DNA of 64,000 bases, from positions 32,001-96,000 of the forward strand of contig JBEKSS010000004.1 in NCBI GenBank assembly GCA_049516875.1. Direction: 5' to 3'. Shown piece by piece: positions 8,354 to 36,243 of this stretch. A program made the translations under genes and the position numbers. Numbering within the stretch: position 1 is the first letter of the stretch; the number at the start of each line of letters is the position of its first letter. This stretch comes from Candidatus Bathyarchaeia archaeon. GTDB taxonomy: Archaea > Thermoproteota > Bathyarchaeia > Bathyarchaeales > Bathycorpusculaceae. The notes below the pieces were generated by a model. The model was not told the DNA's origin. It did not search any database and saw only the letters and a program-made list of their open reading frames with translations.

Positions 8354-8517
8354 TTAGCGCGCGCGCATTTTTGCCCTAGTGACTTTTTTTGAAGAATGCT
8401 CTGGACCTTTGGGTATATCCAGATTGTAGGGGCTTTCATTCTACGTTCACCACTGGGTTCTGTTCATATGAAGAGTACGCGTGCCACCACGGGGACTTAT
8501 CCTTGGCGATGTTGGAA

Positions 8518-8568
8518 GCGCGGGGGTGGGATTTGAACCCAAGCACTTCCACAGGATAGGCTCCTGAA
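8518..8568 (-). pseudogene. Degenerate 3' half of tRNA-Leu(CAG), att-site-like scar
   Basis: Minus strand TTCAGGA GCCTA TCCTGTGGAAGTGC TTGGG TTCAAAT CCCAC CCCCGCG: anticodon loop, long variable arm, T-arm and acceptor 3' strand; no 5' half upstream. Confidence 0.75.
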
Positions 8569-8615
8569 ACTTCCGCGTCTTCTTTGGGTCGAGCATTGTG
8601 CAAGAAGAGATTTTC

Positions 8616-9338
8616 TCAACCAAAGCCCTTATTTTCGAACCGATTGTGGTAGGTGAACATTTCCACATCACGGCGCATTCTCAGACATTTAGCTGGCTTG
8701 GAGACGGGGTGTCCCATGCGGAAGGCAAAGGCAACCTTCATGTATTCGGGGATGCTGAGAATCTGCTTCACCTCTTTTTCCACGGCGTCCCCTGCGAATG
8801 CACTTAATACGTGAACGCTGAATCCCAGGGACTGGGCCATTAGCCACATGTTCTCCATGACACAACCCAGGCTGATAAAACCCAAAACATCCCCCTCCGA
8901 AGCAGGAGCCCTCTTCCTAGCATCATAAACCACGATCAGCAGCACAGGACTACCATTAATCCTCTGTTTCAGGGCCGTGGGTCTGCTCTCACGAACGGCC
9001 TTGTCCAGCCTTGCAGGATCCCTCCAATCCGGCGGAAACACAGTGCCAAGGATTCCAACCTTCTTTTGAAGCAACTCCTCTTCCGAGAACGAGAGCTGCT
9101 GATAGTTCTCACGGATGAACGCTTCCGAAACTTGAGACTTGATGTTTCCAATCTTTTCCAGAACTTCCTTGTCATCAACGACGAGAATCTCGAAGTTCTG
9201 CATGTTATGAGCTGTTGGCGCCCAACGCGCCGCCTCGATGATCTGCCTCAGGTCCTCCTTGGCCAGAGGTCGGTTTGGATCGTAAGCAACTCTTGTTGAC
9301 TGTCTCTGCTGGATAAGTTTCAGAATATCAGTCATCAC
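8616..9338 (-). CDS. Nitroreductase family protein
   Basis: IQQRQSTRVAY, EAARWAPTAHNMQNF, ENMWLMAQSLG, MGHP. Confidence 0.92.
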   Translation of the reverse strand: MMTDILKLIQQRQSTRVAYDPNRPLAKEDLRQIIEAARWAPTAHNMQNFEILVVDDKEVLEKIGNIKSQVSEAFIRENYQQLSFSEEELLQKKVGILGTVFPPDWRDPARLDKAVRESRPTALKQRINGSPVLLIVVYDARKRAPASEGDVLGFISLGCVMENMWLMAQSLGFSVHVLSAFAGDAVEKEVKQILSIPEYMKVAFAFRMGHPVSKPAKCLRMRRDVEMFTYHNRFENKGFG

Positions 9339-9437
9339 TATTATCTTCCATCTTCAAGACTACACGTACCTCTTTCCGTCAAATGAATTTTCGCATATAA
9401 GCCTGCTGACGTGGTTCTGAAACTAGACTCAGAAGCA

Positions 9438-9624
9438 AGCGCGCTAGCGTGTTCCTAAATTGGCCAAAAATGGTTTTTATTCGCTTGTTGCGTTTTGAGA
9501 ATGACTTTTGGGCTTCGCGTTTGTTCTTGATTTCTTTGAGGCTACAGGGCTTCTCAAACATGTGGAAGCGTGCAAAAAGGAATTAAAACCATTTTAGACC
9601 ATTTTCGGAACACGCATGCGCGCT
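9438..9624. repeat. ~187-bp palindromic MITE/attC-like element with ~45-bp imperfect terminal IRs
   Basis: Left AGCGCGCTAGCGTGTTCCTAAATTGGCCAAAAATGGTTTTTATTC vs revcomp of right end AGCGCGCATGCGTGTTCCGAAAATGGTCTAAAATGGTTTTAATTC (38/45 identical). Confidence 0.9.
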
Positions 9625-10291
9625 ATGCGCGTCCGAAGTTCCATGCGTTGTATTCTTTTTCCAACAAAGGCACGTGACTGTTCCAAACTTCCTTGCTGAT
9701 AATCTCTAGTGGCAGTATGGAAGTGGGTTTCCTTTTTGGGTTGTCATGTTCGACATATCCCCAACGGAAACCTGTTATGCAAGAGATTCTTCCTTCCGTA
9801 GACCTCATGGGAACTGTAGTCAGAAACGTATCTGCGACCCACCTCAGCTTGGCATGCTTTCCTATGTTGTGGGCTGGCGCATCAAAAAGTTGTGGCAAGT
9901 ACCCAAAAGAAGCAAATGGAATACCGAAGACTTGCATCGAGGGAAGAACATCTACAAAAACGGACTTATCAATTCTTCCTCCTTCTGAAGGGTAGAACTC
10001 TTCCGTTACAATCTGAATCCAACCGCAGAGCATTCTGTACCCTGAACCGGAATAGTTTTCAACTCTGGCATGCATCATTGGATACCCGCGAACCAAATCG
10101 ATTTCGAAATTCAAGTCAGGAACAATATCAAAACCGGCTTTGATTGGATCGTCATTCTTCCCATAATAGACTACAACTTTCCCATCATGTTCGTTTAGAC
10201 TGAATGGGATGACTATCGCGGGCTGATTGTCCAAAGATAACGCAACCATCAAATTATTAACCACCTCCTGCATGAGTATAAGGCTTTGCAC
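9623..10291 (-). CDS. Hypothetical protein; start uncertain
   Basis: 222-aa ORF with Trp/Gly-rich motifs (GWIQIV, LFDAP, GFRWGY); its TAG stop lies inside the GCGCGCTA end of the adjacent palindrome. Confidence 0.7.
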   Translation of the reverse strand: MQSLILMQEVVNNLMVALSLDNQPAIVIPFSLNEHDGKVVVYYGKNDDPIKAGFDIVPDLNFEIDLVRGYPMMHARVENYSGSGYRMLCGWIQIVTEEFYPSEGGRIDKSVFVDVLPSMQVFGIPFASFGYLPQLFDAPAHNIGKHAKLRWVADTFLTTVPMRSTEGRISCITGFRWGYVEHDNPKRKPTSILPLEIISKEVWNSHVPLLEKEYNAWNFGRA

Positions 10292-10314
10292 TCTTTAGAG
10301 CGCACGGCAATCTT

Positions 10315-10437
10315 GGCGCGCTAGCGTGTTCCTAAATTCCTTTCTTAATGTGTGGCAGGGTTGAGTTGTGTGCCTCTCTAATGGAACGTACTATGAAGAG
10401 AGAAGTACGAGATATGTCGCAAACGAATTTAGGAACA
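10315..10437. repeat. MITE-like element with TGTTCCTAAATTC terminal IRs
   Basis: GGCGCGCTAGCGTGTTCCTAAATTC ... GAATTTAGGAACA; same end as the 9438 element; inverted relative of 36041-36180. Confidence 0.85.
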
Positions 10438-10661
10438 AAGATTTTTCAATGGTGCCGAGGTGGGGTCGCACAATTAGTCCATACCTCCTCGGCTGACTCG
10501 TTCAACGTAGCCATTGATGAGTGGATGGCGGAGGCGCGTTGTGTGGTTTCGGAAGTGTCGCTCTTGAGTATTGATTCAGTGTTCGTAATTGTTTTATTAG
10601 TGCAGCACTTCCACGTTAACCGTCGACATTTCACAGAGTCACACGTAGGAGGATGAAATGA

Positions 10662-13319
10662 ATGAATCAGCGCACTGTTGAGTCTGGCCCAGAGGTAGTT
10701 GTTGATCTGAGTGAGAAGAAGCCGATTCGTGTTTTGCACGTTGACGATGAAGTTGGCCTGTTGAAGATATCTAAACAATGCCTGGAGATGCAGGAATCAT
10801 TTCAAGTACATACGGCGTCTTCGGTAGATGAAGCCATGGAGAAGATGAAGAAGCAATCGTTCGACGTCTTGGTTTCTGACTATCAAATGCCCGGGAAAAA
10901 TGGCCTGCAGTTTCTACAAGAGCTCAGACAAAAAGGTGACAGCACACCCTTCATTATTTTCACTGGAAGAGGCAGAGAGGAAATAGCTGTCAAAGCATTG
11001 AACCTCGGTGCTTCTCAATACTTGAGCAAGAATGGGAATCCAGAAACCGTTTACTGTGAACTCGCCCACGACATTCAACAGGCTGCAAAACGTTCAAGAG
11101 ACGCCATTGAACTCAAAAAGGCAGAACGGAGGCTCTTTGATGAACATGCGAGGCTACTGAACATATTCTCGGCCTCTCCTTCTGCTATTATCGTCATTGA
11201 CTTGAACGGCAAGATTACAGAGTGCAATGAGCAAGCGCAGAAGCTATTCGGGTATCTATCAAAAGACGAGATTATTGGCAAGAATGTCTTCAGCTTCATC
11301 GCAGAGAAAGACAGAGAAAGGGCGACGGAGAACGTAGACAGAACCCTAAAGCAAGGCATATTGAGAAACATCAGATACTTCATTCTCAATAGAGATGGTC
11401 ATGAATGGTTAGCATTGGTTTCTGCAAGCGTCATACAAGAACCCTCCGGCAATCCTTCCGGTTTTGTAATCGTAGCTGAAGACATCACAGAACGTAAGCA
11501 GGTGGAACAGGAGCTTCACCGTTTTTCCGTTGCAATCAAGACCTCACTTGACGGCGTCATATCAGGTGACTTAAATGGGAACATTGCCGATGTAAATGAA
11601 GCTGCACTCAGAATGTATGGAGGCACCGACAAAAGCGACCTGATAGGAAAAAACGTGATTGACCTTCTAGTTGAAAGGGACCGAACGCGGGCGCTACACG
11701 ACTCGATGGAATCCATGAGGACAGGACGGGGCAAGACAGTAGAGTACTGCGCCCTCACAAAGAGCGGCATTGAAATTCCAATAGAGATAACAACGGCATT
11801 CATGAAAGAAGAACAAGGCGAGCCGACAGGGTTCGTGGACATCATTCGAAATACAGCTGAACGAAAAAAAGCAGAGTTAGCACTTAAGGAATCAGAGGCA
11901 AGATACCGTTCATTGGTCGAACAATCACTGGCGGGAATAATCATCGCTCAGGGACCTGCTGTACACGCAGTTTTCGTGAACAGGGCAATGACCGATATTT
12001 GGGGGTATACTGTTGAGGAATTCTGTTCCTTGCCGCAGCAGCAGATAGAAAAAATGATACACCCTGAAGATCGAAGCCTATTTTTCAAGTCTTTTGAGCA
12101 ACGCTTGGAAGGGAAAAACGTGCCTTCGCATTACGAATTTCGGGCACTTCGCAAGGATGGCAACGTCATCTGGCTGGAAATATCCGCTGGACTGATTGAG
12201 TACAATGGGCGACCTGCCGTGCAAGGTATATTTACAGACATCACAGAACGCAAGAAAATGGAAGAGTCTTTGAGAGAGAACAAAGAGAAATTCGAAGGTT
12301 TGTTCACGGGCAACCCCGAAGCCACGGTATACCTGAATCCGGATTTCCACATTCTAGACCTTAATCCCCGCTTCGCAGAACTATTCGGATATTCTCTGGA
12401 GGAAGTCAAAGACAGACACATTGACAATGTCTTAGTTCCCAAGAACATGATGGAAGAAGCTGAGATGTTGGACAAGAAGGCAATTGACGGGTATGTCTAT
12501 CACGACACTGTCAGAGCCAGAAAAGACGGGTCTTTAGTTGCCGTTTCGATTTCTGCTGCACCGATTCTAATACAAGGCCTGCTTGCAGGTTACATTGGCG
12601 TGTATAAGGATATTTCCGAGTTGAAGAAGACAGAACAACAGTTGGCCATGATGAATGAAAAGTTGCGAGTTGTAGGCGGCTTAACTAGGCACGATGTGAG
12701 GAACAAGCTGTCCACGATCACGGGAAATGCTTACATGTTAAAGAAGCAATTGGCAGACAACAAAGAGGTTCTTGACGAAATCAGAGATATGGAGAAAGCC
12801 GTTTCGCAAGTGACGAGGATCTTTGATTTCGCCAAGGACTATGAGATGTTGGGCGTCGAGGAACTGACATACATTGACGTGCAGAAAAGCGTGAACGAGG
12901 CCGCCCAGCTCTTCTCGGATTTAGACGGAGTGAGGATTTTGAACGAATGTCACGGTTTGACTGTCCTGTCGGATTCACTGCTGCAGCAGCTTTTCTATAA
13001 TCTGATCGATAATTCACTGAAGCACGGCGAAAAGCTGAGCCAGATTAGGATTCACTACGAAAAAGCTGAGGGAAACCAGCTCAGACTAGTCTATGAGGAC
13101 GACGGCGTAGGCATATCTCAAGAAGCTAAACCCAAGCTTTTCAGCGAAGGCTACACTGCTGGGAAAGGTTCAGGCTATGGGCTATACTTGGTGAAAAGGA
13201 TGATGGAGGTATATGGCTGGACGATTCAAGAAACTAGCATCCCAGGCATAGGAGTTCGCTTCACTATAGTTATGCCTGAGAAAAACCAAAACGGCAAAGA
13301 AACCTATCAACTTCACTAA
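10662..13319 (+). CDS. Hybrid sensor: receiver + 4 PAS + histidine kinase
   Basis: LHVDDE/SDYQMP receiver, four PAS/PAC repeats (e.g. EDITERK, TDITERK), RHDVRNKL H-box, NLIDNSLKHG, DDGVG, GYGL. Confidence 0.95.
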   Translation: MNQRTVESGPEVVVDLSEKKPIRVLHVDDEVGLLKISKQCLEMQESFQVHTASSVDEAMEKMKKQSFDVLVSDYQMPGKNGLQFLQELRQKGDSTPFIIFTGRGREEIAVKALNLGASQYLSKNGNPETVYCELAHDIQQAAKRSRDAIELKKAERRLFDEHARLLNIFSASPSAIIVIDLNGKITECNEQAQKLFGYLSKDEIIGKNVFSFIAEKDRERATENVDRTLKQGILRNIRYFILNRDGHEWLALVSASVIQEPSGNPSGFVIVAEDITERKQVEQELHRFSVAIKTSLDGVISGDLNGNIADVNEAALRMYGGTDKSDLIGKNVIDLLVERDRTRALHDSMESMRTGRGKTVEYCALTKSGIEIPIEITTAFMKEEQGEPTGFVDIIRNTAERKKAELALKESEARYRSLVEQSLAGIIIAQGPAVHAVFVNRAMTDIWGYTVEEFCSLPQQQIEKMIHPEDRSLFFKSFEQRLEGKNVPSHYEFRALRKDGNVIWLEISAGLIEYNGRPAVQGIFTDITERKKMEESLRENKEKFEGLFTGNPEATVYLNPDFHILDLNPRFAELFGYSLEEVKDRHIDNVLVPKNMMEEAEMLDKKAIDGYVYHDTVRARKDGSLVAVSISAAPILIQGLLAGYIGVYKDISELKKTEQQLAMMNEKLRVVGGLTRHDVRNKLSTITGNAYMLKKQLADNKEVLDEIRDMEKAVSQVTRIFDFAKDYEMLGVEELTYIDVQKSVNEAAQLFSDLDGVRILNECHGLTVLSDSLLQQLFYNLIDNSLKHGEKLSQIRIHYEKAEGNQLRLVYEDDGVGISQEAKPKLFSEGYTAGKGSGYGLYLVKRMMEVYGWTIQETSIPGIGVRFTIVMPEKNQNGKETYQLH

Positions 13320-13423
13320 TGGGCAAGTTCAGCCACAACAGTAAGCCCTAACCTTCTTTTCAAAACAGCCAGACTTCTGTCTAGCTGTGCGCGCTAAGAA
13401 ACCACGTGAACACGTCCAAGAGG

Positions 13424-14218: not shown

Positions 14219-14292
14219 CAGAAAGCCTCACTCCATTCCTACGCCACCAAGACTTTGAAATACCTGCCTTCCAACTTTCAACTGTTTTGCCC

Positions 14293-14958: not shown

Positions 14959-15159
14959 ACAAGTAACTTCCTTTTTGAGTTTGGCATTGGCAAGAATTCA
15001 GCAAACACCATGAATATATTGTTTGTTGCAAACTGAAGCGCGCTCAGTTGTCGGTTCAGCCTAAACCTGCATGCTGAAAAGCCCCTCTGGTCTCCCCCTC
15101 AGAAGCGCCTACTAAAGTTTATGAACTCAGTTCGGACACTACGTCACAGGTGGAGAACG

Positions 15160-16665: not shown

Positions 16666-16735
16666 TTCGCTTGCACGACAGGCGCGCGCTAAAAAACGAA
16701 ATCTTCTTTAGGTATATCTTAACTTGCTTGTGAAT

Positions 16736-17246: not shown

Positions 17247-17399
17247 TTGGCGCGCGCTTAGAGAGGAACACAAGAAAGAATAGAAAGTGAAGGTAAGTGA
17301 ACGTAACGTTTTAATCGTAACGGCAACAATGCACTGCTAACACTCGCTTCACTCTCTGTTCGTTCGTTTCGTTCGCTATAGTAACAATACGCGCGCCAA
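17247..17399. repeat. ~153-bp imperfect palindrome bounded by a perfect 10-bp IR TTGGCGCGCG
   Basis: TTGGCGCGCG 17247-56 / CGCGCGCCAA 17390-99; inner arms GAAAGAATAGAAAGTGAAG vs revcomp GAACGAACAGAGAGTGAAG. Confidence 0.8.
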
Positions 17400-18186: not shown

Positions 18187-18381
18187 CGCGCGCGCTCAGC
18201 GTTAACGGAAACAAGCCTTGAAAGTTGAGGAAAAGGAGGAAATTGACTTGGTTTGTTTTGGTTGGTTGGATTAAAATTCTATCCCCAACACAACCAACAA
18301 GGACCTCCTGACTCCACCATTCAGTTCTCACCTCAGAAAACAACATCAACGAGCAGCAAATTTTTTTAACGGCGGAACGCG
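18187..18381. repeat. ~195-bp degenerate palindrome starting with the (GC)4 motif
   Basis: CGCGCTCAGCGTTAA vs revcomp CGCGTTCCGCCGTTAA at the ends; AGGAGG/CCTCCT and GTTGGTTGGAT/ATCCCCAACACAACCAAC arms. Confidence 0.6.
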
Positions 18382-18451
18382 TATTAATAAACAAAGGCGT
18401 TTTCAAGCCAAAATTCACTACATTCTTGTAGCGAAGACTTCAGGCAAGGTA

Positions 18452-19630
18452 ATGTCAGAATTGTCCACAAAACCTCGAGTTCCAGAATCGAACGAAGAAT
18501 ACGTTGCCTTTCTAGGCACATACACTCCTAGAGAATGCGGAATAGCCACCTTCACGAAAGACCTAATCGACTCCATAGACCGCCTCGGTGAATTCGCCCC
18601 AGCCCGAGTCATAAGCGTAAACGAAATAGAGACAATCTACGACTACGACAGCCGAGTCAAACAACAGATAAGGCAGGATTTCGAAGAGGATTACATTCAA
18701 GCCGCCAAGTACATCAACTCATCCCGAATCAACGCAGTAAACCTACAACACGAATTCGGAATATACGGAGGAGAATGGGGAAAGTATATCCTCTCCTTCC
18801 TACAAAACGTACACAAACCAGTCATAACCACACTCCACACACTCCAACCAGACTTTGAACCAAAAGCACGAAACGTGCTGAAAGAAATCACCGCTCACAG
18901 CAAAGCAATCGTGGTCATGGCAAGAGCCGCCAAGAACATTCTCAAGGAATACGACGTCCCAAACAAGAAAATCAACGTCGTCCAACACGGTTGCCCAGAC
19001 ATCCCCTTCTTAACCAGTGACAGCGTAAAACCTTCGCTGGGTTTGAAAGGAAGAACCATCCTGTCCACTTTCGGCCTAATAAACGGAGGCAAAGGCATCG
19101 AGTACGCCATCCAAGCACTCCCACCCCTAGTTGAAAAACATCCAAACATACTCTACCTAATAATCGGCGAAACACACCCCGAAGTAAGAAAAATCGAAGG
19201 CGAAACCTACCGCATGAACCTCATCAAACTAGTCGACCAACTGGGGCTAAAGAACCACGTCAGATTTCACAATCGCTTCCTAACAAAAAGGGAACTAATA
19301 AGGTACCTCCACGCCACAGACATCTACATCACACCCTACATCGGCCCAAACCAAATCAGCAGCGGCACACTAGTCTACGCTCTAGGAGCCGGCAGAGCAG
19401 TAGTATCAACTCCCTACCTCCACGCTAAAGAGGTGCTGTCTCACGGACGAGGCATGTTCTGCGAGTTCAAAAACCCAGACTCAATCGCCGAAGAGGTGAA
19501 GAAACTTCTAGAAAACGACAAACTGAGAAGAGACATAGAGAAAAAAGCTTACAGGTACAGTCGAAGCTTCATATGGCCAAAGGTCGCCCAAAAATACACA
19601 GACATACTCAAACAAGCGATACACGCTTAA
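18452..19630 (+). CDS. GT4 glycosyltransferase
   Basis: PRECGIATFT, LQHEFGIYGG, TFGLINGGKGIEY, QISSGTL. Confidence 0.92.
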   Translation: MSELSTKPRVPESNEEYVAFLGTYTPRECGIATFTKDLIDSIDRLGEFAPARVISVNEIETIYDYDSRVKQQIRQDFEEDYIQAAKYINSSRINAVNLQHEFGIYGGEWGKYILSFLQNVHKPVITTLHTLQPDFEPKARNVLKEITAHSKAIVVMARAAKNILKEYDVPNKKINVVQHGCPDIPFLTSDSVKPSLGLKGRTILSTFGLINGGKGIEYAIQALPPLVEKHPNILYLIIGETHPEVRKIEGETYRMNLIKLVDQLGLKNHVRFHNRFLTKRELIRYLHATDIYITPYIGPNQISSGTLVYALGAGRAVVSTPYLHAKEVLSHGRGMFCEFKNPDSIAEEVKKLLENDKLRRDIEKKAYRYSRSFIWPKVAQKYTDILKQAIHA

Positions 19631-19642
19631 GAGGACGCTCAC

Positions 19643-20671
19643 GTGAATCTCCCACCTATCAAACTAAACTTCCTTAAAGCAATCACAGACGATACTGGTA
19701 TCTTTCAACATTCGAAATTCGGAACACCAAATCGGCTAGAAGGATACACGACCGACGACAACGCCCGAGCCCTCATAGCCATCACCAAGCACAGCCAAAT
19801 CAAAGGTATCTCCAAATCGGACAGGTTGATAGACACATACCTAAGCTTCCTTCTGCACATGCAAAGAGCAGACGGCAAAATGCATAACTTCCTAGGCTAC
19901 GATCGAAGCTTCATCGACGACGAAGGTTCCGAAGACTGTGCAGGTCGCACCCTATGGGCCTGCGGATACGTAATAAACAGCAAGCTATCAGCGGAGAGGA
20001 GACTTCTAGCAAAAGAAATCTTCGACAAAGCCTTTCGATGGGCATGCTTCTTCAAATCCCCCAGAGCGAAAGCCTTCGCAATACTTGGCCTAAGTCATTA
20101 CCACAAGGCCTACACAAAAGACCAAAACCTAACCCAGAACATAAAGGCACTATCAGACAAACTGCTCGAATACTACGCAAACACGCGCTCCAGCGACTGG
20201 CGCTGGTTTGAACCTTACCTCACCTACGTAAACGGTAGACTCCCGCAAGCCCTTTTCGAAGCCTACCGAGAAACAAAACAAGCCAAATACATTCGAGTCG
20301 CAGAGGAATCGCTAAAGTTCCTCCTTGAAGTTCAGATACTAAACAACAAATTCGTACCCATAGGCAACCACGGCTGGTACAAAAAAGGAAAACCGCGGCC
20401 CATATACGATCAGCAATCCGTGGAAGCAGCTTCAATGACGGAAGCAGCACTGTCAGCTTACCGCGAAACAGACAACCGCCACTACAAAACAATGGCACGA
20501 ACAATCTTCAACTGGTTTCTTGGGAAGAACACCCAAAACTCCTCTGTTTACAATTCCACCACAGGCAGCTGCTACGACGGAATAACCGAAAAAGGACTAA
20601 ACTACAACCAGGGAGCCGAAGCCACCGTTTGCTACCTTTCCGCCCGCATCGAACTTCAAACTACCAAATAG
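19643..20671 (+). CDS. GT4-associated (alpha/alpha)6 glycosidase-like protein
   Basis: TDDTGIFQHS, GYTTDDNARAL, YDQQSVE, CYDG, NQGAEAT, as in the C-terminal domain of bacterial fused GT4 proteins. Confidence 0.8.
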   Translation: MNLPPIKLNFLKAITDDTGIFQHSKFGTPNRLEGYTTDDNARALIAITKHSQIKGISKSDRLIDTYLSFLLHMQRADGKMHNFLGYDRSFIDDEGSEDCAGRTLWACGYVINSKLSAERRLLAKEIFDKAFRWACFFKSPRAKAFAILGLSHYHKAYTKDQNLTQNIKALSDKLLEYYANTRSSDWRWFEPYLTYVNGRLPQALFEAYRETKQAKYIRVAEESLKFLLEVQILNNKFVPIGNHGWYKKGKPRPIYDQQSVEAASMTEAALSAYRETDNRHYKTMARTIFNWFLGKNTQNSSVYNSTTGSCYDGITEKGLNYNQGAEATVCYLSARIELQTTK

Positions 20672-20795
20672 AACGGCAAACAATATTGCCTTTATTCGCG
20701 CGGAAAGTCTCCCACACACGCGTTTTTGTGAGTCCTAAAACAGTTCGCCTTATTAGTCAAGAAAACCAAACCTAAGACAGAGGCGAAACCAGAAC

Positions 20796-21191
20796 GTGCT
20801 AATGGTAAAGCACATAATGATCGAAGACGTGGTAACCGCCAAGGTTAACATCACAATCAAAGACGTCGTCAGAACACTATACGAAAAACACGTGGGCTCA
20901 ATCGTAATAACGGACGACAACCAAAAATGCGTGGGTATCTTCACCGAGCGGGACGCCATAAGAATCATAGCCAACGAAGTCCCACTGGATACCGCCATCG
21001 ATCAAGTGATGACCAAGAATGTCGCCACAATAGGAGAAGAGGCTTCGCTAGAGGAAGCAAGACGACTCGTAATCTCACACGGAATCAGACACCTGCCAGT
21101 CGTAGACCCCAAAGGAGAACTAACCGGCCTACTCTCCGTCAGAAAACTCTTAGATGAACTCTTTGGATTTACCACGTCAAAAAACTACTAG
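20796..21191 (+). CDS. CBS-pair protein
   Basis: VGIFTERD, VMTKNV, IRHLPVVD. Confidence 0.9.
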   Translation: MLMVKHIMIEDVVTAKVNITIKDVVRTLYEKHVGSIVITDDNQKCVGIFTERDAIRIIANEVPLDTAIDQVMTKNVATIGEEASLEEARRLVISHGIRHLPVVDPKGELTGLLSVRKLLDELFGFTTSKNY

Positions 21192-21203
21192 GATACATAC
21201 AAA

Positions 21204-22097
21204 ATGAGACGGTCCCAAGACAACCCGATCCTTCAGCCAATAGCATCTAACCCCTGGGAATCGAAAGAAGTATTCAACGCTGCCGCCATAAGAGTCGGCA
21301 AACGAGTCCACATACTATACCGGGCAATAGGTAACGACGGCATATCCCGCATCGGATACGCCGCCTCCTCTGACGGATACAAAATCGACGAGCGGTCACC
21401 AGTCCCCGTTTTTGAACCCCACAACGAAGCTGAACGCTGGGGATGCGAGGACCCCAGACTAACGCTCTTCGGCGACCAAATAATAATGTCTTACACAGCC
21501 CTTTCCGAAATTGACCACGAACAGCTCTACCAGATCTCACTAGTATCCATCGCAATTGGCGATTTCTTGAGCAAACAATGGAAATGGAACGAACGACTAT
21601 TGCCATTCAGAGGCATACACAACAAAGACGCCGTCATTTTCCCAAAAAAAATCGGAGGCAAGTACGTCATGTTTCATCGCCTAGAGCCAGACATGTGCGT
21701 GGCGTACTCCGACGACCTCAGAAGATGGTACGACATCAGGTCCTTGATGAGACCAAGAAGGAAAAGCTGGGACTGCTGGAAAGTAGGCGCAGCCGGACCC
21801 CCCATCGAACTCAACGAGGGCTGGCTCCTTATCTACCACGGCGTGAGTTTCGAGAAGGTCTATTCGCTTGGCGTAATCCTGCTGGACAGAGACAATCCCG
21901 AAACCATTCTGTACCGCTCCGAAACACCCATACTAACACCCGTCACCGACTACGAGCGCTTCGGCAAAGTGCCTAACGTGGTGTTCAGCTGTGGAAACGT
22001 ACTCATCAACGACGAAGTCCTAGTGTACTACGGAGGCGCCGACAGCGTAATGTGCGTGGCAACATACGAACTAAACGAACTAATGCCCAAAAAATAA
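21204..22097 (+). CDS. GH130 glycoside hydrolase/phosphorylase
   Basis: VFNAAA, LYRA, GCEDPR, NKDAVIFP, LIYHGV, VPNVVFSCG, YYGGAD. Confidence 0.92.
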   Translation: MRRSQDNPILQPIASNPWESKEVFNAAAIRVGKRVHILYRAIGNDGISRIGYAASSDGYKIDERSPVPVFEPHNEAERWGCEDPRLTLFGDQIIMSYTALSEIDHEQLYQISLVSIAIGDFLSKQWKWNERLLPFRGIHNKDAVIFPKKIGGKYVMFHRLEPDMCVAYSDDLRRWYDIRSLMRPRRKSWDCWKVGAAGPPIELNEGWLLIYHGVSFEKVYSLGVILLDRDNPETILYRSETPILTPVTDYERFGKVPNVVFSCGNVLINDEVLVYYGGADSVMCVATYELNELMPKK

Positions 22098-22168
22098 AAC
22101 CCCAACTAAGCAAACGCTCAACCGAACTTGACGACCACCGGAACCAAAGCTAAGAAGCCCGGCAACCG

Positions 22169-22522
22169 TCACATCAACAACATGCTATTCTCCATGGAGT
22201 CTTTTGTCTGAACCGCCATTACAGGCGATTCTATGGAAAAATACGCGTCCCCGCTTGCATACCCGCAGACCGAAAAGTAAGCCCGCGCCAATGAAGAGAC
22301 AAAAACCCGAAACTTAACATTCTCATCTGCGCTGGGCATCAAAGCGTAGACAAAGCACCCAGCGCAATCAACTGAAAACCCCGGATCTGGGGAGTGCAGC
22401 CGCAAAACCAAATTCTTCAAGATGCTGCTTCCAACGTTTTTCAGGTTCAACGTCAAGAAGTGGTCACCTGCAATCTTCGTTGTCGATAACAACTTAAACT
22501 CCAACCGAACCTTAACGACCAC
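22169..22522 (-). CDS. Hypothetical beta-rich (CARDB/Ig-like) protein
   Basis: Likely GTG start after AGGAGGT; LTLNLKNVG...LKNLVLRL pattern. Confidence 0.55.
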   Translation of the reverse strand: MVVKVRLEFKLLSTTKIAGDHFLTLNLKNVGSSILKNLVLRLHSPDPGFSVDCAGCFVYALMPSADENVKFRVFVSSLARAYFSVCGYASGDAYFSIESPVMAVQTKDSMENSMLLM

Positions 22523-22719
22523 CTTGAACCTCCTAATACTCAGAAACTCGAACAGACATATTATATTCCTCGGCAAAGCTCTTAAAACTTTGCGCGCGCG
22601 CATTTGGGGTCAAATCCCACCGGACCCGCTCATATATAGTGTGTGCTTCTTCTCTGAAACACTACAAAATCGAGTTACTCGGTCTCCAGTGTGCGTACAA
22701 TCAGAGTCGCATGGAGACT

Positions 22720-22932
22720 GCGCGCGCTATAAATTCTCGTCAATAAAATGTAGGATAACCTTAGTATTTTACCGGTAAACATGTGTTCAATTGTTAGCCC
22801 CCGCACACTAAGGTCCTAAATTGAGTTTATTTCGGCTAATTAAGCTCAGAATAAGCCTAAAATTAGAATGCGGGGGGTGGGACCCCCACCCGAGTTTACC
22901 GGTAAAATGTGTCTGGAACGTTCGCGCGCGCG
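22720..22932. repeat. ~213-bp imperfect palindrome with (GC)4 at both ends
   Basis: Perfect 15-bp IR ATTTTACCGGTAAAC 22766-80 / 22894-908; CCCCCGCA/TGCGGGGG; central TGAGTTTATT/AATTAAGCTCA. Confidence 0.85.
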
Positions 22933-25311: not shown

Positions 25312-25637
25312 AGGCGTGATTTGACGGAACACCTGTTCACGCGCTGTTGTCTGCGCATAAGCCACGTTAAGCACTCATAAATGTTGTTTGTCGGAGCTCT
25401 TCGACGCTAAACAAGAATCATATAACGGTGTGACGAGAGTAATCATGCACAGTGGGCAAGGTAGAGTAAACAATGGAGAAAGAAGCGGTTTCTAAGCGCG
25501 CGCGGGTGGTGGGGCCCCACCGGACTTTACCGGTAGAAACACCATGGTACGGCAGGTCTGCCCGTCCCACCTGATCGAACAAATTGGCTAGTTCTTGCTT
25601 AGCGCTGAACAAAAGGCTGTGTTTCAGACAAAGTATT

Positions 25638-26018
25638 CTATGGAAAGAGTTTGAGTCCAAGGGCTTTGAGGGGGCTGAAGTGTTTCAAGTCGAAGGTGAA
25701 GAGGGCTGCCCCGTTGTTTATGGTCATCGCGGCTATCATAGCATCAGTTCTGCGTATGGAAGTTCCATTTTCTTCTGCTTCAAGCTCTATTTTGCTGGAG
25801 AGGACTGCATCCTTTTTCATATAGTTCAAAACAGGTAACAACAGAATCTCTTTGACTGGTTTTCCATACTTGTGGAGGCCGTAGAGTATCTCGTGTATGT
25901 TGATGACAGTTGTGCATATTTCTTCTTCACTCTGAAGAATCTGCTTGAGAGCTTCGTCACCTTTTACTGATTTCTTGTCCAGTATCTCAATCAACACGTC
26001 CGTGTCTATCGCGATCAT
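25638..26018 (-). CDS. vapC: VapC PIN-domain toxin
   Basis: IDTDVLI, EILYG, DAMIAA, LFTFDLKHF; ATGA overlap with the antitoxin. Confidence 0.9.
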   Translation of the reverse strand: MIAIDTDVLIEILDKKSVKGDEALKQILQSEEEICTTVINIHEILYGLHKYGKPVKEILLLPVLNYMKKDAVLSSKIELEAEENGTSIRRTDAMIAAMTINNGAALFTFDLKHFSPLKALGLKLFP

Positions 26019-26227
26019 CTTCTTCGTTCAGCCCTGGAAGAACTTATCTCTGAAAGCATCTCTTTCTTCTTTCTGAACTCTACACTCGCCCTGAGTTTTG
26101 ATAGCGTTTCTAGTGGATCCTTATTTTCTGCAAGCCTATCAAATAGCTCACTGAAGCTTTCATCCTTCTTCTTGATGGTCAGCAGTTTTCTATACACTTC
26201 TTCTCGGATGGTTATAGTCTTGACCAG
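26015..26227 (-). CDS. vapB: VapB-type antitoxin, probable CTG start
   Basis: Frame extends upstream to (CTG)VKTITIREEVYRKL...ESFSELFDRL; GTGAT SD-like upstream. Confidence 0.85.
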   Translation of the reverse strand: MVKTITIREEVYRKLLTIKKKDESFSELFDRLAENKDPLETLSKLRASVEFRKKKEMLSEISSSRAERRR

Positions 26228-26280
26228 GATGGATCACGTGAATCTGTATGTTTAAACGTACACTTAAACATTACTGGAAC

Positions 26281-26549
26281 CGCGCGCGCTGTGCGTGGAC
26301 AAAACAGGCGTAGGAGACGCAGTAGTAGACGAGCTGGAAACAATTCGAGTCGGAAGCGTTAACGGTGTTTTCTTCACGGAAGCTGAAAAAGAAAACATGC
26401 TCAATCGCCTCAAACTCCTCATGAAGAAAAAACTTCTCAAAATCCCAGGCGACGACAGACAACTAATAACCCAGATAAACGAACAGCAATACGAGTACCT
26501 CCAACCCAAAACAGCACAAGAACGAATCCACCTCAAGTTCAAGCATCCA
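26281..26549 (+). pseudogene. Fragment of a viral terminase large-subunit nuclease domain
   Basis: CVDKTGVGDAVVDEL...GVFFT..EKENM...LKIP..RQLITQINEQQYEY...LKFKHP, lacking the ATPase half and the following HDD motif. Confidence 0.7.
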
Positions 26550-27104: not shown

Positions 27105-27258
27105 AATATCCAAGAACTGATTCAAAGACACCGTCGTTGACTCAACAGACTAGGCATTACAGGCCGCTCCATTCCATCCAGACCCCTGCAGCTCCCACAC
27201 CAATAACAGTTCCTATAGAAACGCGCGCTAGAGATATATCGCAGATGTTCGCTGTCTG

Positions 27259-29470: not shown

Positions 29471-29576
29471 CCAGCACGCTCGAAACCTAATTCACAGCGT
29501 TGACAAAACCTCAACCACACACCCTCACAACAAACTTGCTCCCCCTTCACTCTCACTCTTCACATCCATCGCAGAG

Positions 29577-29798: not shown

Positions 29799-29872
29799 TA
29801 AGCCCCATCCGAACCAATCGTTTAAATCCTCACAGAAAGATATCATTCAGAAAAGCGGAAGCTGGAACCCAA

Positions 29873-32617: not shown

Positions 32618-32627
32618 TGAAGGCTCA

Positions 32628-34465: not shown

Positions 34466-34486
34466 ACGAGAGCGTTTCACCGAAGA

Positions 34487-35443
34487 CTAAGGGTACGTCA
34501 GCTTGATGGCTTTGTGTTCACAAGCGTCGACGCACTTCATGCAGTAGATGCACTCTGGATGGCTGAATTTTTCCCAAGGCAAATCCAATATGGGAACACG
34601 GGTGGGACAAACTTGGACGCAGTGGCCGCATCCGCCTTTCTCGCATTTGGTAGGTTCTCTTCTCAAGCCGATGAAGCTGAACGTGTTCATAAGAGCCATA
34701 ATGGCCCCGTGTGGGCAGAAGTACCTGCACCAGCTACGAGGCACGTAGGCCACGAAGGCCAGAACGAAAATCATGATTACAAGTTGAACCCAGAAAAGCG
34801 CGGACAGGCTCGAAATGTCGTGCAAGACATCTACACCCTGGCTTGAAAACACTGAAACGGAAAAATCGTGCACCATCCTCGGCAAGGTTGCGAACAAGGT
34901 TTCCGATGGGCTCAAGACTGTGAAAGGTGCATTAGCAAATATGCCTAAAGCCTTCTGATACTCTCCACTGATACCCATAACCTCTGAAGCCGAAAAAATC
35001 ATGACCATGAACAGCGTAATTGCCAGAACGAAATACTTCACGTAGACCATGGTCTCATGGGTTCTCACCGACAAATCTGTCTGCTTACGTTTGAAAAAGC
35101 CAACCAAGTCTTGGATGAAACCAAAAGGACAGACCCACCCGCACATTGACTTGCCTATCAGTATGCCCACGATCAGGAATGAGGCTATTGCAACCCAAGG
35201 AAAAACAACGCTGGCGTTCCATCCGCTGAACATCAGCTGGATAGCAGTGAACGCGTCGCCCGAACTGTTCACCTTCAACCCCCACGTCCAAAGAACAGGA
35301 AACAAGAGCGGTAGCGCACCGAGACTGAAAACTATTGAACTGAAGAAGATGAAGGAAAGCAACTGGACTACTCTGCGCGGCGTGTTATACTTGAGTAGTC
35401 TCTGTCTCAGTTTCTGAGCGTTCAAACGTTTCGCCTTCTTCAT
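34487..35443 (-). CDS. 4Fe-4S membrane protein (NapH/MauN-like)
   Basis: CGWVCPFG, WCRYFCPHG, C..CVQVCP, CIYCMKCVDAC. Confidence 0.88.
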   Translation of the reverse strand: MKKAKRLNAQKLRQRLLKYNTPRRVVQLLSFIFFSSIVFSLGALPLLFPVLWTWGLKVNSSGDAFTAIQLMFSGWNASVVFPWVAIASFLIVGILIGKSMCGWVCPFGFIQDLVGFFKRKQTDLSVRTHETMVYVKYFVLAITLFMVMIFSASEVMGISGEYQKALGIFANAPFTVLSPSETLFATLPRMVHDFSVSVFSSQGVDVLHDISSLSALFWVQLVIMIFVLAFVAYVPRSWCRYFCPHGAIMALMNTFSFIGLRREPTKCEKGGCGHCVQVCPTRVPILDLPWEKFSHPECIYCMKCVDACEHKAIKLTYP

Positions 35444-35466
35444 GCTCTAATGAAGGACTGAGTTAT

Positions 35467-35598
35467 TTATTTTCCTATGACTTTAACATTTTCCACAAGA
35501 ATCCATGGTGCCACGAGCTGCCCGATTTTCCTCTCGTTGTCAGCTGGCCCGGAAACATTCGCCAATACGTCGAAAATGTCTCCGGCCAACATCGCTCC
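35467..35598 (-). pseudogene. 3' remnant of pmbA/tldE
   Basis: [16 protein letters not shown]...[22 protein letters not shown] matches a PmbA C-terminus. Confidence 0.75.
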
Positions 35599-35744
35599 GT
35601 GCGCTTGCCTGCTGGAAAGTGCAGGTTCGTTGATCAACGCTGGGGGTGGACAAATAGCCCGCTCTTGCACCGTTTCCCGTGCTTTGATGGTGTCTGTCAG
35701 GTGTGCCTCTGCGCTGCAGATATTGATGTGGCGAAAAGAGCCAT

Positions 35745-35870
35745 GTTAGAGTGCGAGTCCTTGTGTTTGAGTACTCAATCCGTGATTTCTTTGAGTGTCA
35801 AAACAATGTTGAACAATGTTGGTTCAGCGCTTTTTTTACTCAATTCCGCGAGGTTTTTGAGTGTCAAAAC
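35745..35870 (-). repeat. ACTCAA-box dispersed repeat, copy 3 (B-A, inverted)
   Basis: Reverse complement matches the B-A units of copy 2. Confidence 0.9.
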
Positions 35871-36026
35871 CCTCCCGATGGGCACGAAAGACAAGAGTGC
35901 GATGGACCAGGACTCGTATGCCACCGAGGTTAAGAGCTGAGTTTACAAAAAGAAGCTCCATTCTAGTTAGCGAGTCTGCAGTGTATAGTTGTTGTAATGA
36001 AAATGAATGGGCTAGCTTTTACTAGA

Positions 36027-36243
36027 CTAGCGCGCATGCCTGTTCCTAAATTCGTTTGCGAGGTGGCCTGTGCTTCCGGTTTTGCTTCGTCTATGGATGG
36101 TGATGCCTAAGGATACGAGAAGCACCGTTCAAAAGGCGCGACGCAACTCTATTACGGTTGAAAAGGGGAATTTAGGAACACACATAAGCACTGCAAGCAA
36201 CACATGCGGCAACATCAAACGCAACATATAAAAAACGCGCTAG
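36027..36243. repeat. Element bounded by CTAGCGCG/CGCGCTAG containing a TGTTCCTAAATTC MITE (36041-36180)
   Basis: TGTTCCTAAATTCGTTTGCGA is the exact revcomp of 10417-10437; GAATTTAGGAACA at 36168-36180. Confidence 0.85.

Follow-up and report, generated by a model that had tools for sequence, protein, structure and literature searches.

The short GC runs that separate accessory gene modules in this Bathyarchaeia genome may be marks left by a family of transposable elements. Under this tentative reading, to which a probability of about 0.45 is assigned, the solo TA-(GC)4-5-TA runs are scars or junction marks derived from the tips of IS5/IS1182-like insertion sequences (ISs) and of MITEs of about 190 bp, a family that inserts without target duplication. 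The runs lie within variable islands, precisely at the boundaries of DNA blocks that were inserted, deleted or exchanged, and their discrete lengths and fixed phase are predicted by the joining of tip to tip and not by slippage.

Abundance and shape of the motif

The window, a stretch of 64,000 nucleotides from genome G000, contains 11 overlapping matches to the octamer GCGCGCGC, where 0.52 are expected from dinucleotide shuffles; none of 100 shuffles reached this count. The matches form nine loci (8357-8366, 16682, 17250, 18188, 22592-22601, 22720, 22924, 25496 and 26282), all of which, as noted by the original prediction, are found at 8.3-26.3 kb with none at 37-64 kb. The shorter GCGCGC occurs 37 times versus 12.5 expected (shuffle maximum 22), and its four matches at 37-64 kb (40454, 47415, 49288 and 53146) are coding background since all are within ORFs of at least 280 aa. 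Octamers are absent from every Pfam-supported gene in the window, in agreement with the view that none lies in a credible gene; the short ORFs that overlap them (8134-8439, 22169-22603 and 26264-26560) match no Pfam family. Among the 19 sites that had been listed, 17 are real runs of at least 6 nt with coordinates that are 0-3 nt off, while 17675 (GCGC-TA) and 36236 (CGCGC-TAG) are half motifs only.

The (GC)4-5 palindrome is the commonest octamer of the whole genome. A genome-wide count gave 416 runs, concentrated in accessory DNA and scattered over all large contigs with no single array. Although 82% of the genome is ORF, 75% of the runs are intergenic, with an equal density in all three kinds of intergenic region (0.69-0.81 per kb). 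The length distribution has its peak at 8 nt and ends after 10 nt: intergenic counts are 258, 126, 185, 84 and 41 at lengths of 6, 7, 8, 9 and 10 nt, followed by 3, 1, 0 and 1 at lengths of 11, 12, 13 and 14 nt. The phase is fixed, with 212 occurrences of GCGCGCGC versus 28 of CGCGCGCG, and genome G002 repeats the pattern of length and phase. The base directly following a run is T on 57% of sides and the next is A on 38%, with no conservation past about +3. The TA of the TAG that had been assigned to the motif is therefore retained and the G is not, and the full consensus is the palindrome TAGCGCGCGCTA, or TA(GC)4TA.

In 189 clean runs, the sequence on one flank is independent of that on the other (four 3-nt direct repeats versus 4.0 expected), from which it follows that there is no target duplication. 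No fixed doublet spacing was found among the runs. Closely spaced pairs enclose short, arbitrary fragments of 1-70 nt; in 104 such pairs, the spacers are not palindromic and only two are remnants of terminal inverted repeats (TIRs). Thus, solo runs are not simply shrunken MITEs.

Runs at the edges of variable DNA

The features of the window are listed below with their counterparts in genomes G002 and G004 and in metagenome contigs (X3, X5, X6 and X12).

8357..8366: (GC)5 solo run right ahead of a block (window 8365-8531) with 96% identity to G004:C7; the run is missing from G004
9439..9623: MITE with GC tips, about 185 bp, GCGCGC-TAGCGTGTTCCTAAATT ... CGGAACACGCAT-GCGCGC
9439..13394: inserted stretch of about 4 kb that G002:C3 and G004:C16 lack, with GCGCGCTA at both bounds
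10316..10438: 124-bp MITE derivative with a GCGCGC tip at its left end only
13389..13394: GCGCGC closing the 4-kb insertion on the right; G002/G004 homology resumes directly afterwards
15038..15043: GCGCGC between the TMEM175-like and amidase genes
16682..16689: (GC)4 solo run downstream of the amidase gene; (GC)5 in X3, X5 and X12 contigs
17250..17257: (GC)4 solo run upstream of the SnoaL gene
18187..18195: C(GC)4 run marking precisely where a 4.7-kb block starts on the left; G002 has CGCGCGTGC there, with an unrelated left flank
18187..22882, plus strand: GT4..GH130 block; identity of 96.8% with G002:C13:28294-32994 and of about 97% with G004:C51
22592..22601: (GC)5 run inside the shared GT4..GH130 block; decayed version in G002, GCACCCGCGTGC
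22720..22727: (GC)4 run inside the same block; G002 has only GC, a 6-nt difference
22923..22932: (CG)5 run, 16 nt past the TTTACCGGTAAAA element; an X12 contig begins at 22935
25496..25504: (GC)4G run directly next to the vapBC block, on its left
25502..26280, minus strand: vapBC (PIN + VapB) block, 95.4% identical to G004:C7:3467-4247
26281..26289: C(GC)4 run directly next to the vapBC block, on its right; 26282 is the start of an X12 contig
27222..27227: CGCGCG upstream of the O-methyltransferase gene
36030..36185: GC-tipped MITE, left end GCGCGC-ATGCCTGTTCCTAAATT, right end AATTTAGGAACACACAT without a tip

The gene modules delimited by these features had been named correctly, each having near full-length domains: nitroreductase, PAS kinase, glutaminyl cyclase with TMEM175, amidase, SnoaL, GT4..GH130, ABC, PIN/VapB and O-methyltransferase. 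The MITE at 9439..9623 has about 25 related copies in G000, and congeners as well as metagenome variants have a breakpoint at its left tip (9439-9444). The TAG at 9623-9625, reported as a stop codon inside the motif, does terminate a minus-strand ORF (9623-10291) and shares the last base of the run at 9618-9623. The 4-kb insertion, composed of this MITE, a 222-aa ORF, the MITE derivative and the PAS kinase, is absent from G002:C3 and G004:C16, in which the nitroreductase gene lies next to the glutaminyl-cyclase gene; an X6 contig likewise joins 9441 to 13412. The MITE derivative has a 100% identical copy at G000:C1:53994-54117, and metagenome contigs have 37-39 nt in place of the unit 9445-10437. 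The MITE at 36030..36185 sits in otherwise syntenic DNA. Against an identity background of about 76-85%, the 96.8% identity of the GT4..GH130 block indicates a recent exchange within the genus. The vapBC block has runs on both flanks in G000 and none in G004, and in X3 the region is a separate 736-nt unitig (25545-26280).

Genome-wide comparisons are consistent with these examples. Congener-shared DNA has 0.25 runs per 10 kb and the remaining DNA 2.1-2.9, a depletion of about 10-fold in syntenic DNA. Both 400-nt flanks are colinear in G002 for 25 of 410 runs (6.1%), as opposed to 36.6% of 1116 run-free intergenic midpoints. Block ends were examined using the 65 internal ends of 38 G000-G002 blocks of at least 92% identity and at least 150 bp. 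A run was found within 5 nt of 26.2% of these ends in G000 (control 2.7%), 38.5% in G002 (control 1.8%), 52.3% in either genome and 12.3% in both. Alignment of related genomes, proposed as a check on the motif, therefore places block ends on runs (52% versus 2-3% in controls), and metagenome contigs from other studies also show indels that break at runs. Since the run is mostly present in one of the two genomes, these ends argue against conservative site-specific recombination. Runs are rarely conserved at orthologous sites, and only two of seven inside 94-99% identical blocks are unchanged. Many inserted blocks bear a run at one end only, although the block at G002:B4:513-1013 has one on both flanks. 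Two blocks that are 2.2 kb apart in G000 abut in G002 through a bare GCGCGCGC (B1:743/753). At identical block ends, one genome may have a MITE end where the other has a solo run or only CAT+GCGCGC, as at C10:117943/B1:5333, C9:105341/B16:25735 and C3:12108/B2:25141. Because a block may have runs in one genome and lack them in another, the cassettes do not own the site.

In sum, the part of the original prediction that considered the motif to be a junction mark of accessory, mobile modules is upheld, as runs concentrate in non-syntenic DNA and species and strain breakpoints fall on them. Background level, frequency in core DNA and the coincidence of breakpoints were all tested and none refuted the observation.

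Transposable elements with GC tips

The sole repeats of G000 that bear the motif are IS5/IS1182-like ISs and MITEs of about 190 bp, both with inverted-repeat tips of (GC)3-4 on both sides. The IS is about 1.1 kb in length with terminal inverted repeats and encodes a transposase of about 330 aa with DDE_Tnp_1 and DUF772 domains. Its best NCBIfam hits, IS1182 (142 versus a 270-bit cut-off) and IS5_4 (103 versus 140), are under the equivalog cut-offs, which marks this as a divergent archaeal group. GC-tipped TIR ends number 40 in G000 and 28 in G002; a reversed control and the run-poor genomes G012 and G006 have none. In G000, there are about 10 solo runs for each element end (416 against 40). 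The outer flank is TA at 34 of 59 IS/MITE TIR ends versus about 37% of solo-run sides. Flank searches for 39 elements identified no empty site, and at no locus were an element, a scar and an empty site found as an allelic series.

All 14 IS relatives with readable ends have a GC-rich tip on at least one end. In 11 (L112, L113, L118-L122, L125 and L130-L132), a (GC)3-4 tip is present at both, or both readable, ends; L124 (CCGCGC) and L135 (CCGCAC) are degenerate at one end, and L123 from G023 has the tips GCGTGC/CCGTGC. Two further distant relatives have no tip (L127) or no clear TIR (L136). The 14 tip-bearing relatives represent four inner-TIR subfamilies with 28-100% transposase identity, and several are from genera without solo runs. 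It follows from this distribution that the tip is the element's own and not the target's. Relatives in genomes at background octamer level also keep a (GC)3-like tip at one or both ends: G005, with five octamers, has IS tips GCGCGC and CCGCGC, and G023 has three octamers.

The motif is patchy across the family, occurring in 29 of 70 genera and 44 of 121 genomes, and counts are uneven within genera (1, 40 and 0 in g46; 0, 1 and 17 in g57). An IS hit was obtained in 13 of the 17 genomes with at least five copies of TAGCGCGCGCTA versus 23 of the 104 others. A fourteenth run-rich genome, G104, has GC-tipped TIRs. The genome with the most twelve-mers (40), G103, is IS-positive by count; its only IS is 28% identical and without GC tips, accompanied by three TIR ends and a 165-bp MITE of the GC-tipped family. 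Neither an IS hit nor a TIR match was found in run-rich G053, G092 and G037 (12, 10 and 5 twelve-mers). In G053:C2, 16 runs are present in 12.5 kb.

With respect to enzymes, G000 has a complete Ku / LigD-PolDom / ligase-phosphoesterase operon, which provides a route for end joining. Ku is present in seven of the 17 run-rich genomes versus 11 of the 104 others and is absent from G103; thus, it is not required. Four of the ten tyrosine-recombinase hits in G000 are on the run-richest contig, C14. No candidate enzyme tied to the runs was found.

Origin of the runs and comparison with known systems

We infer a route by which tips could become solo runs. Upon departure of an element, or its deletion together with neighbouring DNA, a few tip bases would remain on each flank. 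Joining of these self-complementary GC ends would give (GC)3, (GC)4 or (GC)5 and hardly ever anything longer; for instance, two 6-nt tips that overlap by 6, 4 or 2 nt would yield 6, 8 or 10 nt. As elements of the IS1182 type seek out palindromes and go along with rearrangements, the same junctions may collect both scars and new insertions, which would account for islands composed of gene blocks separated by runs. The runs themselves would be neutral and quickly decaying. Some considerations run counter to the tip-derived origin. A scar alone should keep homology on both sides, and an extra rearrangement step must be assumed where homology ends. Hairpin-type cleavage, as in Tn5/Tn10 of the same superfamily, would leave no transposon bases. 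The missing allelic series, the three run-rich genomes without IS or TIR, the excess of solo runs over element ends, the G103 IS without GC tips, the one-ended runs at many blocks, the dispensability of Ku and the spacers that are not TIR remnants also weigh against it.

An unlikely alternative, close to the earlier idea of gene shuffling, is that the run is an active minimal site, (GC)4-5, at which DNA is cut or joined by an enzyme (the IS transposase, an island integrase or an end-joining complex). The self-complementary run would serve as a linker for the excision, capture or swapping of any segment, in keeping with the blocks that are flanked on both sides (vapBC and G002:B4:513-1013), the bare junction at B1:743/753, the arbitrary fragments between runs, the ability of either side to act as an independent end, the runs in genomes without detectable IS and the recombinase hits on C14. 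However, conservative recombination should keep the site in both genomes, and only 12.3% of block ends have the run in both versus 52.3% in either; moreover, recombinase arms are not conserved beyond TTA/TAA, the runs mutate faster than their surroundings and no enzyme is tied to them. It is similarly doubtful that the run is a pre-existing palindrome of the host or mobile gene pool, such as intergenic punctuation or a Z-DNA-prone element, to which IS1182-like elements and other mobile DNA home, with the likeness to IS tips being adaptation or coincidence. Palindrome targeting by IS1272 of the IS1182 family (PMC5678879), the TA preference common to element flanks and solo sides, the equal density among intergenic kinds and the run-rich genomes without IS are all in its favor. 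Nevertheless, (GC)3-like IS tips in genomes at background octamer counts (G005 and G023) show that the tip was not copied from a target, and the depletion in syntenic DNA, the rarity of runs at orthologous sites and the patchiness within g46 and g57 fit bursts better than a host function.

The integron-like array or RAYT-mobilized (HUH Y1) REP/REPIN system that had been proposed is highly improbable. While a short palindrome does sit between cassette-like single genes and small operons, with one stop codon overlapping a run, this reading is contradicted on the defining features tested: no match to the Y1_Tnp profile (PF01797) was identified in the 97.5% complete G000, nothing is conserved and no hairpin forms outside the 8-10 nt run, doublet spacing is not fixed, the blocks do not carry the site, and no one array lies beside an integrase. 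In place of these enzymes, the family that shares the sequence is the DDE transposase of the IS5/IS1182-like ISs, and the run is no more than a candidate for an active recombination site. Least credible is a technical artefact (linkers or chimeric assembly joins) or an ordinary dinucleotide microsatellite. Runs do occur at joins of unrelated DNA, often with A before and T after, and a single run is (GC)4 in some populations and (GC)5 in others; yet contigs from four separate studies pass straight through runs (X5 records 21, 22 and 24, for example), neighboring genes have full-length domains in a mostly intergenic setting, the motif recurs across the family, and the cut-off after 10 nt and fixed phase are unlike slippage products.

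Among known systems, IS1272 of Staphylococcus aureus targets palindromes, lacks target duplication and is linked to rearrangements (PMC5678879), and an IS5/IS1182 element of E. coli C inserted at a deletion without target duplication (bioRxiv 10.1101/2024.06.02.596822). The present elements resemble these in transposase domains and size, element length, TIRs, the absence of target duplication (including at the 189 clean runs) and the association with palindromes and deletions or rearrangements. They differ as a divergent archaeal group, and neither a (GC)3-4 tip nor hundreds of solo tip-like words is described in the parts of these two reports that were covered.

Other systems are compared in terms of their junction words. 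Tc1/mariner-type cut-and-paste excision leaves a few terminal bases of each end joined as a short constant word between TA. Here, the transposase family is different, the TA is not a duplication since the sides are independent, and the runs are found where homology ends and do not interrupt a continuous stretch of it; no excision event was observed. Integron attC sites are likewise palindromic elements between small modules in variable DNA that can overlap stop codons, but the runs have neither a 57-141 nt imperfect attC nor conserved flanks, do not travel with a cassette and form no single array adjoining an integrase. REP/REPIN sequences share the short, abundant, mostly intergenic and lineage-specific palindromic word; unlike them, the runs are only 8-10 nt without stem-loop flanks, doublets or a Y1/HUH gene and are concentrated in accessory DNA. 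The USS/DUS of Pasteurellaceae and Neisseria are also the most over-represented short words, with hundreds of copies spread through core genes, whereas the present motif is depleted in congener-shared DNA, patchy among close relatives and unconserved at orthologous sites. Lastly, the joints of phage mosaics have conserved boundary or linker words where exchangeable modules meet. These words are present in both partners as homology, while most joints here carry the run in one of the two genomes only.

The GC word and its location

The octamer GCGCGCGC is present in the window as 11 overlapping matches at nine loci, all between 8.3 and 26.3 kb, compared to 0.52 matches expected from dinucleotide-preserving shuffles; none of 100 shuffles reached 11. 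GCGCGC matches are also in excess (37 versus 12.5 expected), and the four hexamers beyond 37 kb all lie within long ORFs. The enrichment described in the original prediction was confirmed. Of its 19 junction positions, 17 fall within a few bases of a genuine run of 6 nt or more, while 17675 is GCGC-TA and 36236 is CGCGC-TAG only.

The window corresponds to C4:32001–96000 of the source assembly (2.43 Mb, 20 contigs). Across this assembly, GCGCGCGC is the most frequent octamer, and 416 runs in which G and C alternate over 8 nt or more are distributed over all large contigs. With 311 runs intergenic, 4 partly intergenic and 101 within ORFs, they may be compared to an intergenic share of 434,426 of 2,430,117 bp, where "intergenic" is approximate since ORFs were called by a crude greedy procedure (minimum 90 aa). 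A maximum-order Markov test on 8-mers (831 expected versus 894 observed) was uninformative, its expectation being high because the 7-mers are themselves enriched; enrichment was judged from the shuffles and the length spectrum in its place. Intergenic run lengths decay geometrically to 4 nt and then climb. There are 258 runs of 6 nt and, at the peak, 185 of 8 nt; counts of 84 (9 nt) and 41 (10 nt) come next, and lengths of 11–14 nt have just 3, 1, 0 and 1. The same spectrum was obtained for the congener G002. The maximal 8-mers are mostly in one phase (212 GCGCGCGC versus 28 CGCGCGCG).

The runs are flanked preferentially by T (57%) and then A (38%), with no conservation beyond approximately 3 nt on either side (832 flanks). 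The resulting consensus, TAGCGCGCGCTA, has 23 exact copies in the source genome. Among 189 clean runs, four 3-nt direct repeats were observed where 4.0 were expected; the two sides are independent and there is thus no target duplication. Run density differs little among divergent (0.73 per kb), tandem (0.69) and convergent (0.81) intergenic regions, and no sharp distance peak between runs and gene ends was found. As a result, a promoter or terminator was rejected as the main explanation. Searches of the window with ARAGORN and Rfam found no tRNA or Rfam elements. The motif is a discrete 8–10 bp word, not a structured repeat, microsatellite or promoter element, and no published account of it was found at the level of titles and abstract openings.

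The runs are clumped, with 94 of 232 10-kb bins empty (Poisson expectation 43) and 27 bins containing at least five runs (expectation 6.7). A comparison with G002 covered 1.84 Mb (79%), with contigs C5, C6, C17, C18 and C19 represented by their first 20 kb only. Bins at least 75% covered by G002 contained 0.25 runs per 10 kb versus 2.1–2.9 in bins less than 50% covered, and run count was inversely correlated with coverage (Spearman -0.31, p = 2e-6). The same division is evident in the window, bearing out the accessory/housekeeping split proposed from the sequence. From 29.8 to 64 kb there is no octamer and the DNA is colinear with a single G002 contig (C12) at 81–85% identity; this part encodes ProRS and ThrRS, both fitted by models of archaeal type. 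In contrast, 8–29.8 kb gave merely scattered matches to four G002 contigs. The gene modules named in the original prediction were supported by near full-length Pfam domain matches, indicating that the genes adjoining runs are intact.

The highest run density in the source genome (4.9 per 10 kb) belongs to contig C14 (83.7 kb), where ORF coverage is low (70%). This contig also contains four of the ten tyrosine-recombinase (Phage_integrase) matches in the genome, the window containing none, and probably consists of clustered integrated elements. Contigs C18 and C19, 5 kb each, have a G+C content of 59% and 39%, respectively, versus 46–48% elsewhere; with a stated contamination of 5.4%, they may be foreign or mis-binned DNA.

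Breakpoints at runs

Within the window, the match of 18187–22882 to G002 (contig C13, 96.8% identity) starts exactly at the run 18187–18195, whose G002 counterpart is CGCGCGTGC beside an unrelated flank. The glycan operon (GT4..GH130) in this segment has an identity of approximately 97% in three species that are only 76–85% identical in their shared core DNA, which suggests that it was transferred recently between members of the genus. The vapBC block (25502–26280) is 95.4% identical to contig C7 of a second congener, G004, and is flanked by GCGCGCGCG and CGCGCGCGC in the source genome and by no run in G004. Similarly, 8365–8531 is 96% identical to G004 and begins directly after a (GC)5 at 8357–8366, where G004 has no run. 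The nitroreductase and glutaminyl-cyclase genes are adjacent in both congeners and 4 kb apart in the source genome, the 4-kb insert having GCGCGCTA at both borders.

From 38 blocks shared with G002 at 92% identity or more over at least 150 bp (background identity 76–85%), 65 internal ends were obtained after removal of any lying 30 nt or less from a contig or tile boundary. The proportion of ends within 5 nt of a run was 26.2% in the source genome (shifted control 2.7%), 38.5% in G002 (control 1.8%), 52.3% in either genome and 12.3% in both. The signal was weaker in older blocks (17.6%, then 5.5%). When the 400-nt flanks of 410 runs were compared to G002, six runs near contig ends having been set aside, both flanks were colinear for only 25 (6.1%); one side matched for 184, the two sides matched different places for 58, and 143 matched nowhere. 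The corresponding values for 1116 run-free intergenic midpoints, taken from regions of at least 30 bp that have no run closer than 50 nt, were 36.6% colinear, 22.6% one side, 9.4% two places and 31.4% nowhere. Repeats within the source genome (at least 90% identity) gave the same picture, with 11.9% of 218 ends within 3 nt of a run versus 1.4% in controls. Some runs are small, clean changes within continuous homology, examples being an insertion, GTA-(GC)4-GTA versus GTA, and an 8-nt run in place of 7 nt.

Contigs from four metagenomes (X3, X5, X6 and X12), each from a different study, also contain the runs, and variant contigs have their breakpoints there. In X3, X5 and X6, 37–39 nt stand in place of the 1-kb unit 9445–10437; one X6 contig is without the 4-kb unit, and the run at 16682 is (GC)5 in X3, X5 and X12. 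Position 26280 is a unitig end, and unitigs begin at 26282 and 22935. Separately, an X12 contig (depth 239) omits 818 bases (14280–15097), including a TMEM175-like gene; its breakpoints, 14279 and 15098, are off runs, the nearest run (15038) being 55 nt away.

None of the outcomes named in advance as counting against the original prediction, namely no enrichment, equal frequency in core DNA and breakpoints away from the motif, was observed. The mechanism it offered, an integron- or REPIN-like system, was only partly borne out. An attC site is an imperfect palindrome of approximately 57–141 nt that has conserved core sites and occurs once in each cassette; no such structure accompanies the runs. 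An integron cassette takes its own site to a new context, whereas the vapBC and 8365–8531 blocks are run-less in G004. An integron also has IntI, attI and a promoter heading a single array; the runs are dispersed over all large contigs. REP and REPIN sequences are imperfect palindromes of 20–40 nt, often in inverted doublets at fixed spacing, whereas the runs have no conserved flanks and are broadly spaced with no doublet peak except at the MITE length. A search for the Y1 HUH transposase (RAYT, PF01797) gave no match in the source genome (97.5% complete), while the same search matched six of 14 control genomes. As proposed, the motif separates mobile modules and lies at their breakpoints, but the defining features examined for an integron or a REPIN/RAYT system are absent. 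A DNA uptake sequence is a poor comparison as well, being even across core DNA and conserved among close relatives, while the runs are depleted in DNA shared with G002 and patchy within genera.

GC-tipped elements and the origin of the runs

Self-comparison of the source genome identified a family of approximately 160–200 bp elements with the form TA-GCGCGC-ATGCGTGTTCCTAAA ... TTTAGGAACACGCAT-GCGCGC-TA. They have the properties of MITEs, being shorter than about 500 bp, without an ORF, present in many copies and bearing the TIRs of an autonomous IS.

MITE copies in the window
9439–9623, MITE copy
10316–10438, MITE copy, partial
36030–36185, MITE copy

The autonomous partner is a 1082-bp IS with the same ends as the MITEs on contig C7 of G002 (L113), which encodes a 328-aa transposase with DDE_Tnp_1 (PF01609, 1.2e-23) and DUF772 (PF05598, 1.3e-09) domains. 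Approximately 21 paired elements of 162–480 bp with its TIR are present in the source genome. The only DDE_Tnp_1 gene there belongs to an intact relative (L112, C7:36805–37907; PF01609 6.1e-14, PF05598 8.6e-09) that is 45% identical to the G002 IS and ends in GCGCGCTGGCTTGTCCCTAAA. The IS elements examined are 1082–1252 bp, fitting an IS5/IS1182-like type. Since the best NCBIfam matches, IS1182 (142.1 bits, cut-off 270) and IS5_4 (102.8 bits, cut-off 140), are both below cut-off, the GC-tipped IS is, as judged from these profiles, an IS5/IS1182-related but divergent group.

The TIR matched at 16–18 of 18 positions in 15 of 16 elements examined, the exception being L136 (13/18, no clear TIR). 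The ends could be read in 14 of 16 IS relatives. A (GC)3-4 tip is present on both ends, or both readable ends, of 11 relatives; one end is degenerate in G005 (L124, CCGCGC) and G056 (L135, CCGCAC), the tips in G023 (L123) are GCGTGC/CCGTGC, and L127 of G103 has no GC tip. Several tip-bearing relatives come from genomes with a background octamer level (3–14 copies), so the tip belongs to the element. GC-tipped TIR ends number 40 in the source genome and 28 in G002 versus none in the reversed control or in the run-poor genomes G012 and G006.

The motif is a family-wide, patchily distributed phenomenon. The 12-mer, comprising the run consensus with its TA flanks, is present in 44 of 121 family genomes and 29 of 70 genera, with counts that are patchy within genera and a reversed control that is nearly absent. 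An IS match (E <= 1e-15) was obtained in 36 of 121 genomes; 21 of these 36 contain the 12-mer versus 23 of the other 85, and 13 of 17 genomes with at least five 12-mer copies have an IS match versus 23 of 104 others, these counts being descriptive only as the genomes are related and differ in size. GC-tipped TIRs also occur in G104 and G103. Neither an IS nor a TIR match was found in the run-rich genomes G053, G092 and G037, and contig C2 of G053 has 16 runs in 12.5 kb.

Two simple routes from element to run were rejected. TA is not a target duplication as in an IS630/Tc1-like model, given the independent flanks and IS copies without consistent duplication. Internal deletion of MITEs is not the general source of solo runs, those outside IS and MITE copies, as spacers are TIR-like in two of 104 close run pairs; the spacers are arbitrary DNA and not element remnants.

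The best-supported explanation, with a probability of roughly 45%, is that the GC-tipped, TSD-less IS5/IS1182-like IS/MITE family left the runs behind as scars or junction marks derived from its tips; the mechanistic steps are ones that we infer. Joining two 6-nt GC tips that overlap by 6, 4 or 2 nt would produce runs of 6, 8 or 10 nt, all of them in the GC phase and hardly any exceeding that length, in agreement with the observed spectrum. Palindrome insertion without target duplication is reported for IS1182-family elements (PMC5678879), and an IS5/IS1182 element reportedly inserted at a large deletion without duplication (bioRxiv 10.1101/2024.06.02.596822). Elements of this kind would occupy rearrangement joints, and their departure or truncation would leave tips at the joint. 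In three of the 38 high-identity blocks, a MITE tip ends the block in one genome where the other has a solo run or CAT+GCGCGC, with differing outer flanks. Moreover, only two of seven runs within young blocks are unchanged, such fast change being expected for neutral scars.

Against scars stand the approximately tenfold excess of solo runs over element ends in the source genome, the arbitrary spacers and the many inserts that bear a run at just one end. A search for the empty sites of 39 IS/MITE copies found none, alignment of the MITE-bearing gap at 35.6–36.4 kb with G002 gave no readable one, and no locus with element, scar and empty alleles was found. A simple scar alone, furthermore, does not end homology. 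That a run is itself an active joining or recombination site is improbable beside the rapid change of runs in young blocks but would amount to a new gene-shuffling mechanism. It is likewise doubtful that the runs are pre-existing palindromes targeted by mobile DNA. Equally unlikely, TA(GC)4-5TA could be the working joint of an undescribed assembly of accessory DNA in which self-complementary ends stitch fragments into islands. Here, the GC-tipped transposase or another nuclease would make DNA ends that receive or keep a self-complementary GC end; such an end could pair with any other in either orientation, joining fragments of a few bases to several kb and allowing exchange across species, as a natural linker-ligation system possibly helped by a Ku/LigD operon.

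The source genome has a complete PolDom-Ku-ligase/phosphoesterase operon at C9:90884–93944 (L126, 4884–7944), with LigD_Prim-Pol (2.7e-82), Ku (2.3e-40) and DNA_ligase_A_M + A_C + LigD_N matches, and it may provide a joining route in the making of runs. Ku is present in 7 of 17 run-rich genomes versus 11 of 104 others and was not found in G103, which has 40 twelve-mers; thus, Ku was rejected as a requirement for runs. The operon lies in a run-rich island (seven octamers in 13 kb), and Ku was found in 18 of 121 family genomes and one of 14 control genomes.

If the runs are scars, they would preserve a legible history of transposon movement and of the points where foreign blocks were joined in. 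Each genome would contain hundreds of such marks, dated and defined by their sequence, in an uncultured family known from peat and wetland metagenomes. Gene-flow boundaries could be mapped at single-base resolution from sequence alone, and a rare view would be gained of archaeal cut-and-paste transposition and break repair, including in a lineage with a complete Ku/LigD system. What sets the motif apart is that the commonest octamer of a genome is linked to inter-species gene flow at the level of single bases. In practice, it offers an easy way to flag accessory islands and recently transferred DNA in genomes of this kind.

Other repeats in the accessory DNA

A second abundant repeat family, without GC tips, is present in the window at 17424–17612, 29572–29799 and 35737–35920. 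It has 63–69 related copies in the source genome with ATCACGGATTGAGTACTCAAACACAAG units, and its depth in metagenome contigs is 10–20 times that of the flanks. Two octamers, TGAGTACT and AGTACTCA, rank with the most over-represented in the source genome. A second palindromic word, GATCGATC, is enriched across the genome (92 versus 48 expected), as are CGATCGAT and ATCGATCG.

A different junction element is a 141-bp unit with eight copies. The palindrome TTTACCGGTAAA forms its borders, and inside it a fragment resembling a tRNA 3' end, GCGGGGGGTGGGA, is fused to CCCCCACCC.

Locations of the second junction element
22767–22907 (window)
25505–25540 (window)
8520–8600 (window)
297–496 (source genome contig C8)

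At the matching place, G002 has an intact tRNA-like gene end, and the units resemble remnants of att sites left where integrative elements used tRNA genes. In an X12 contig, 22907 is joined to 25551.
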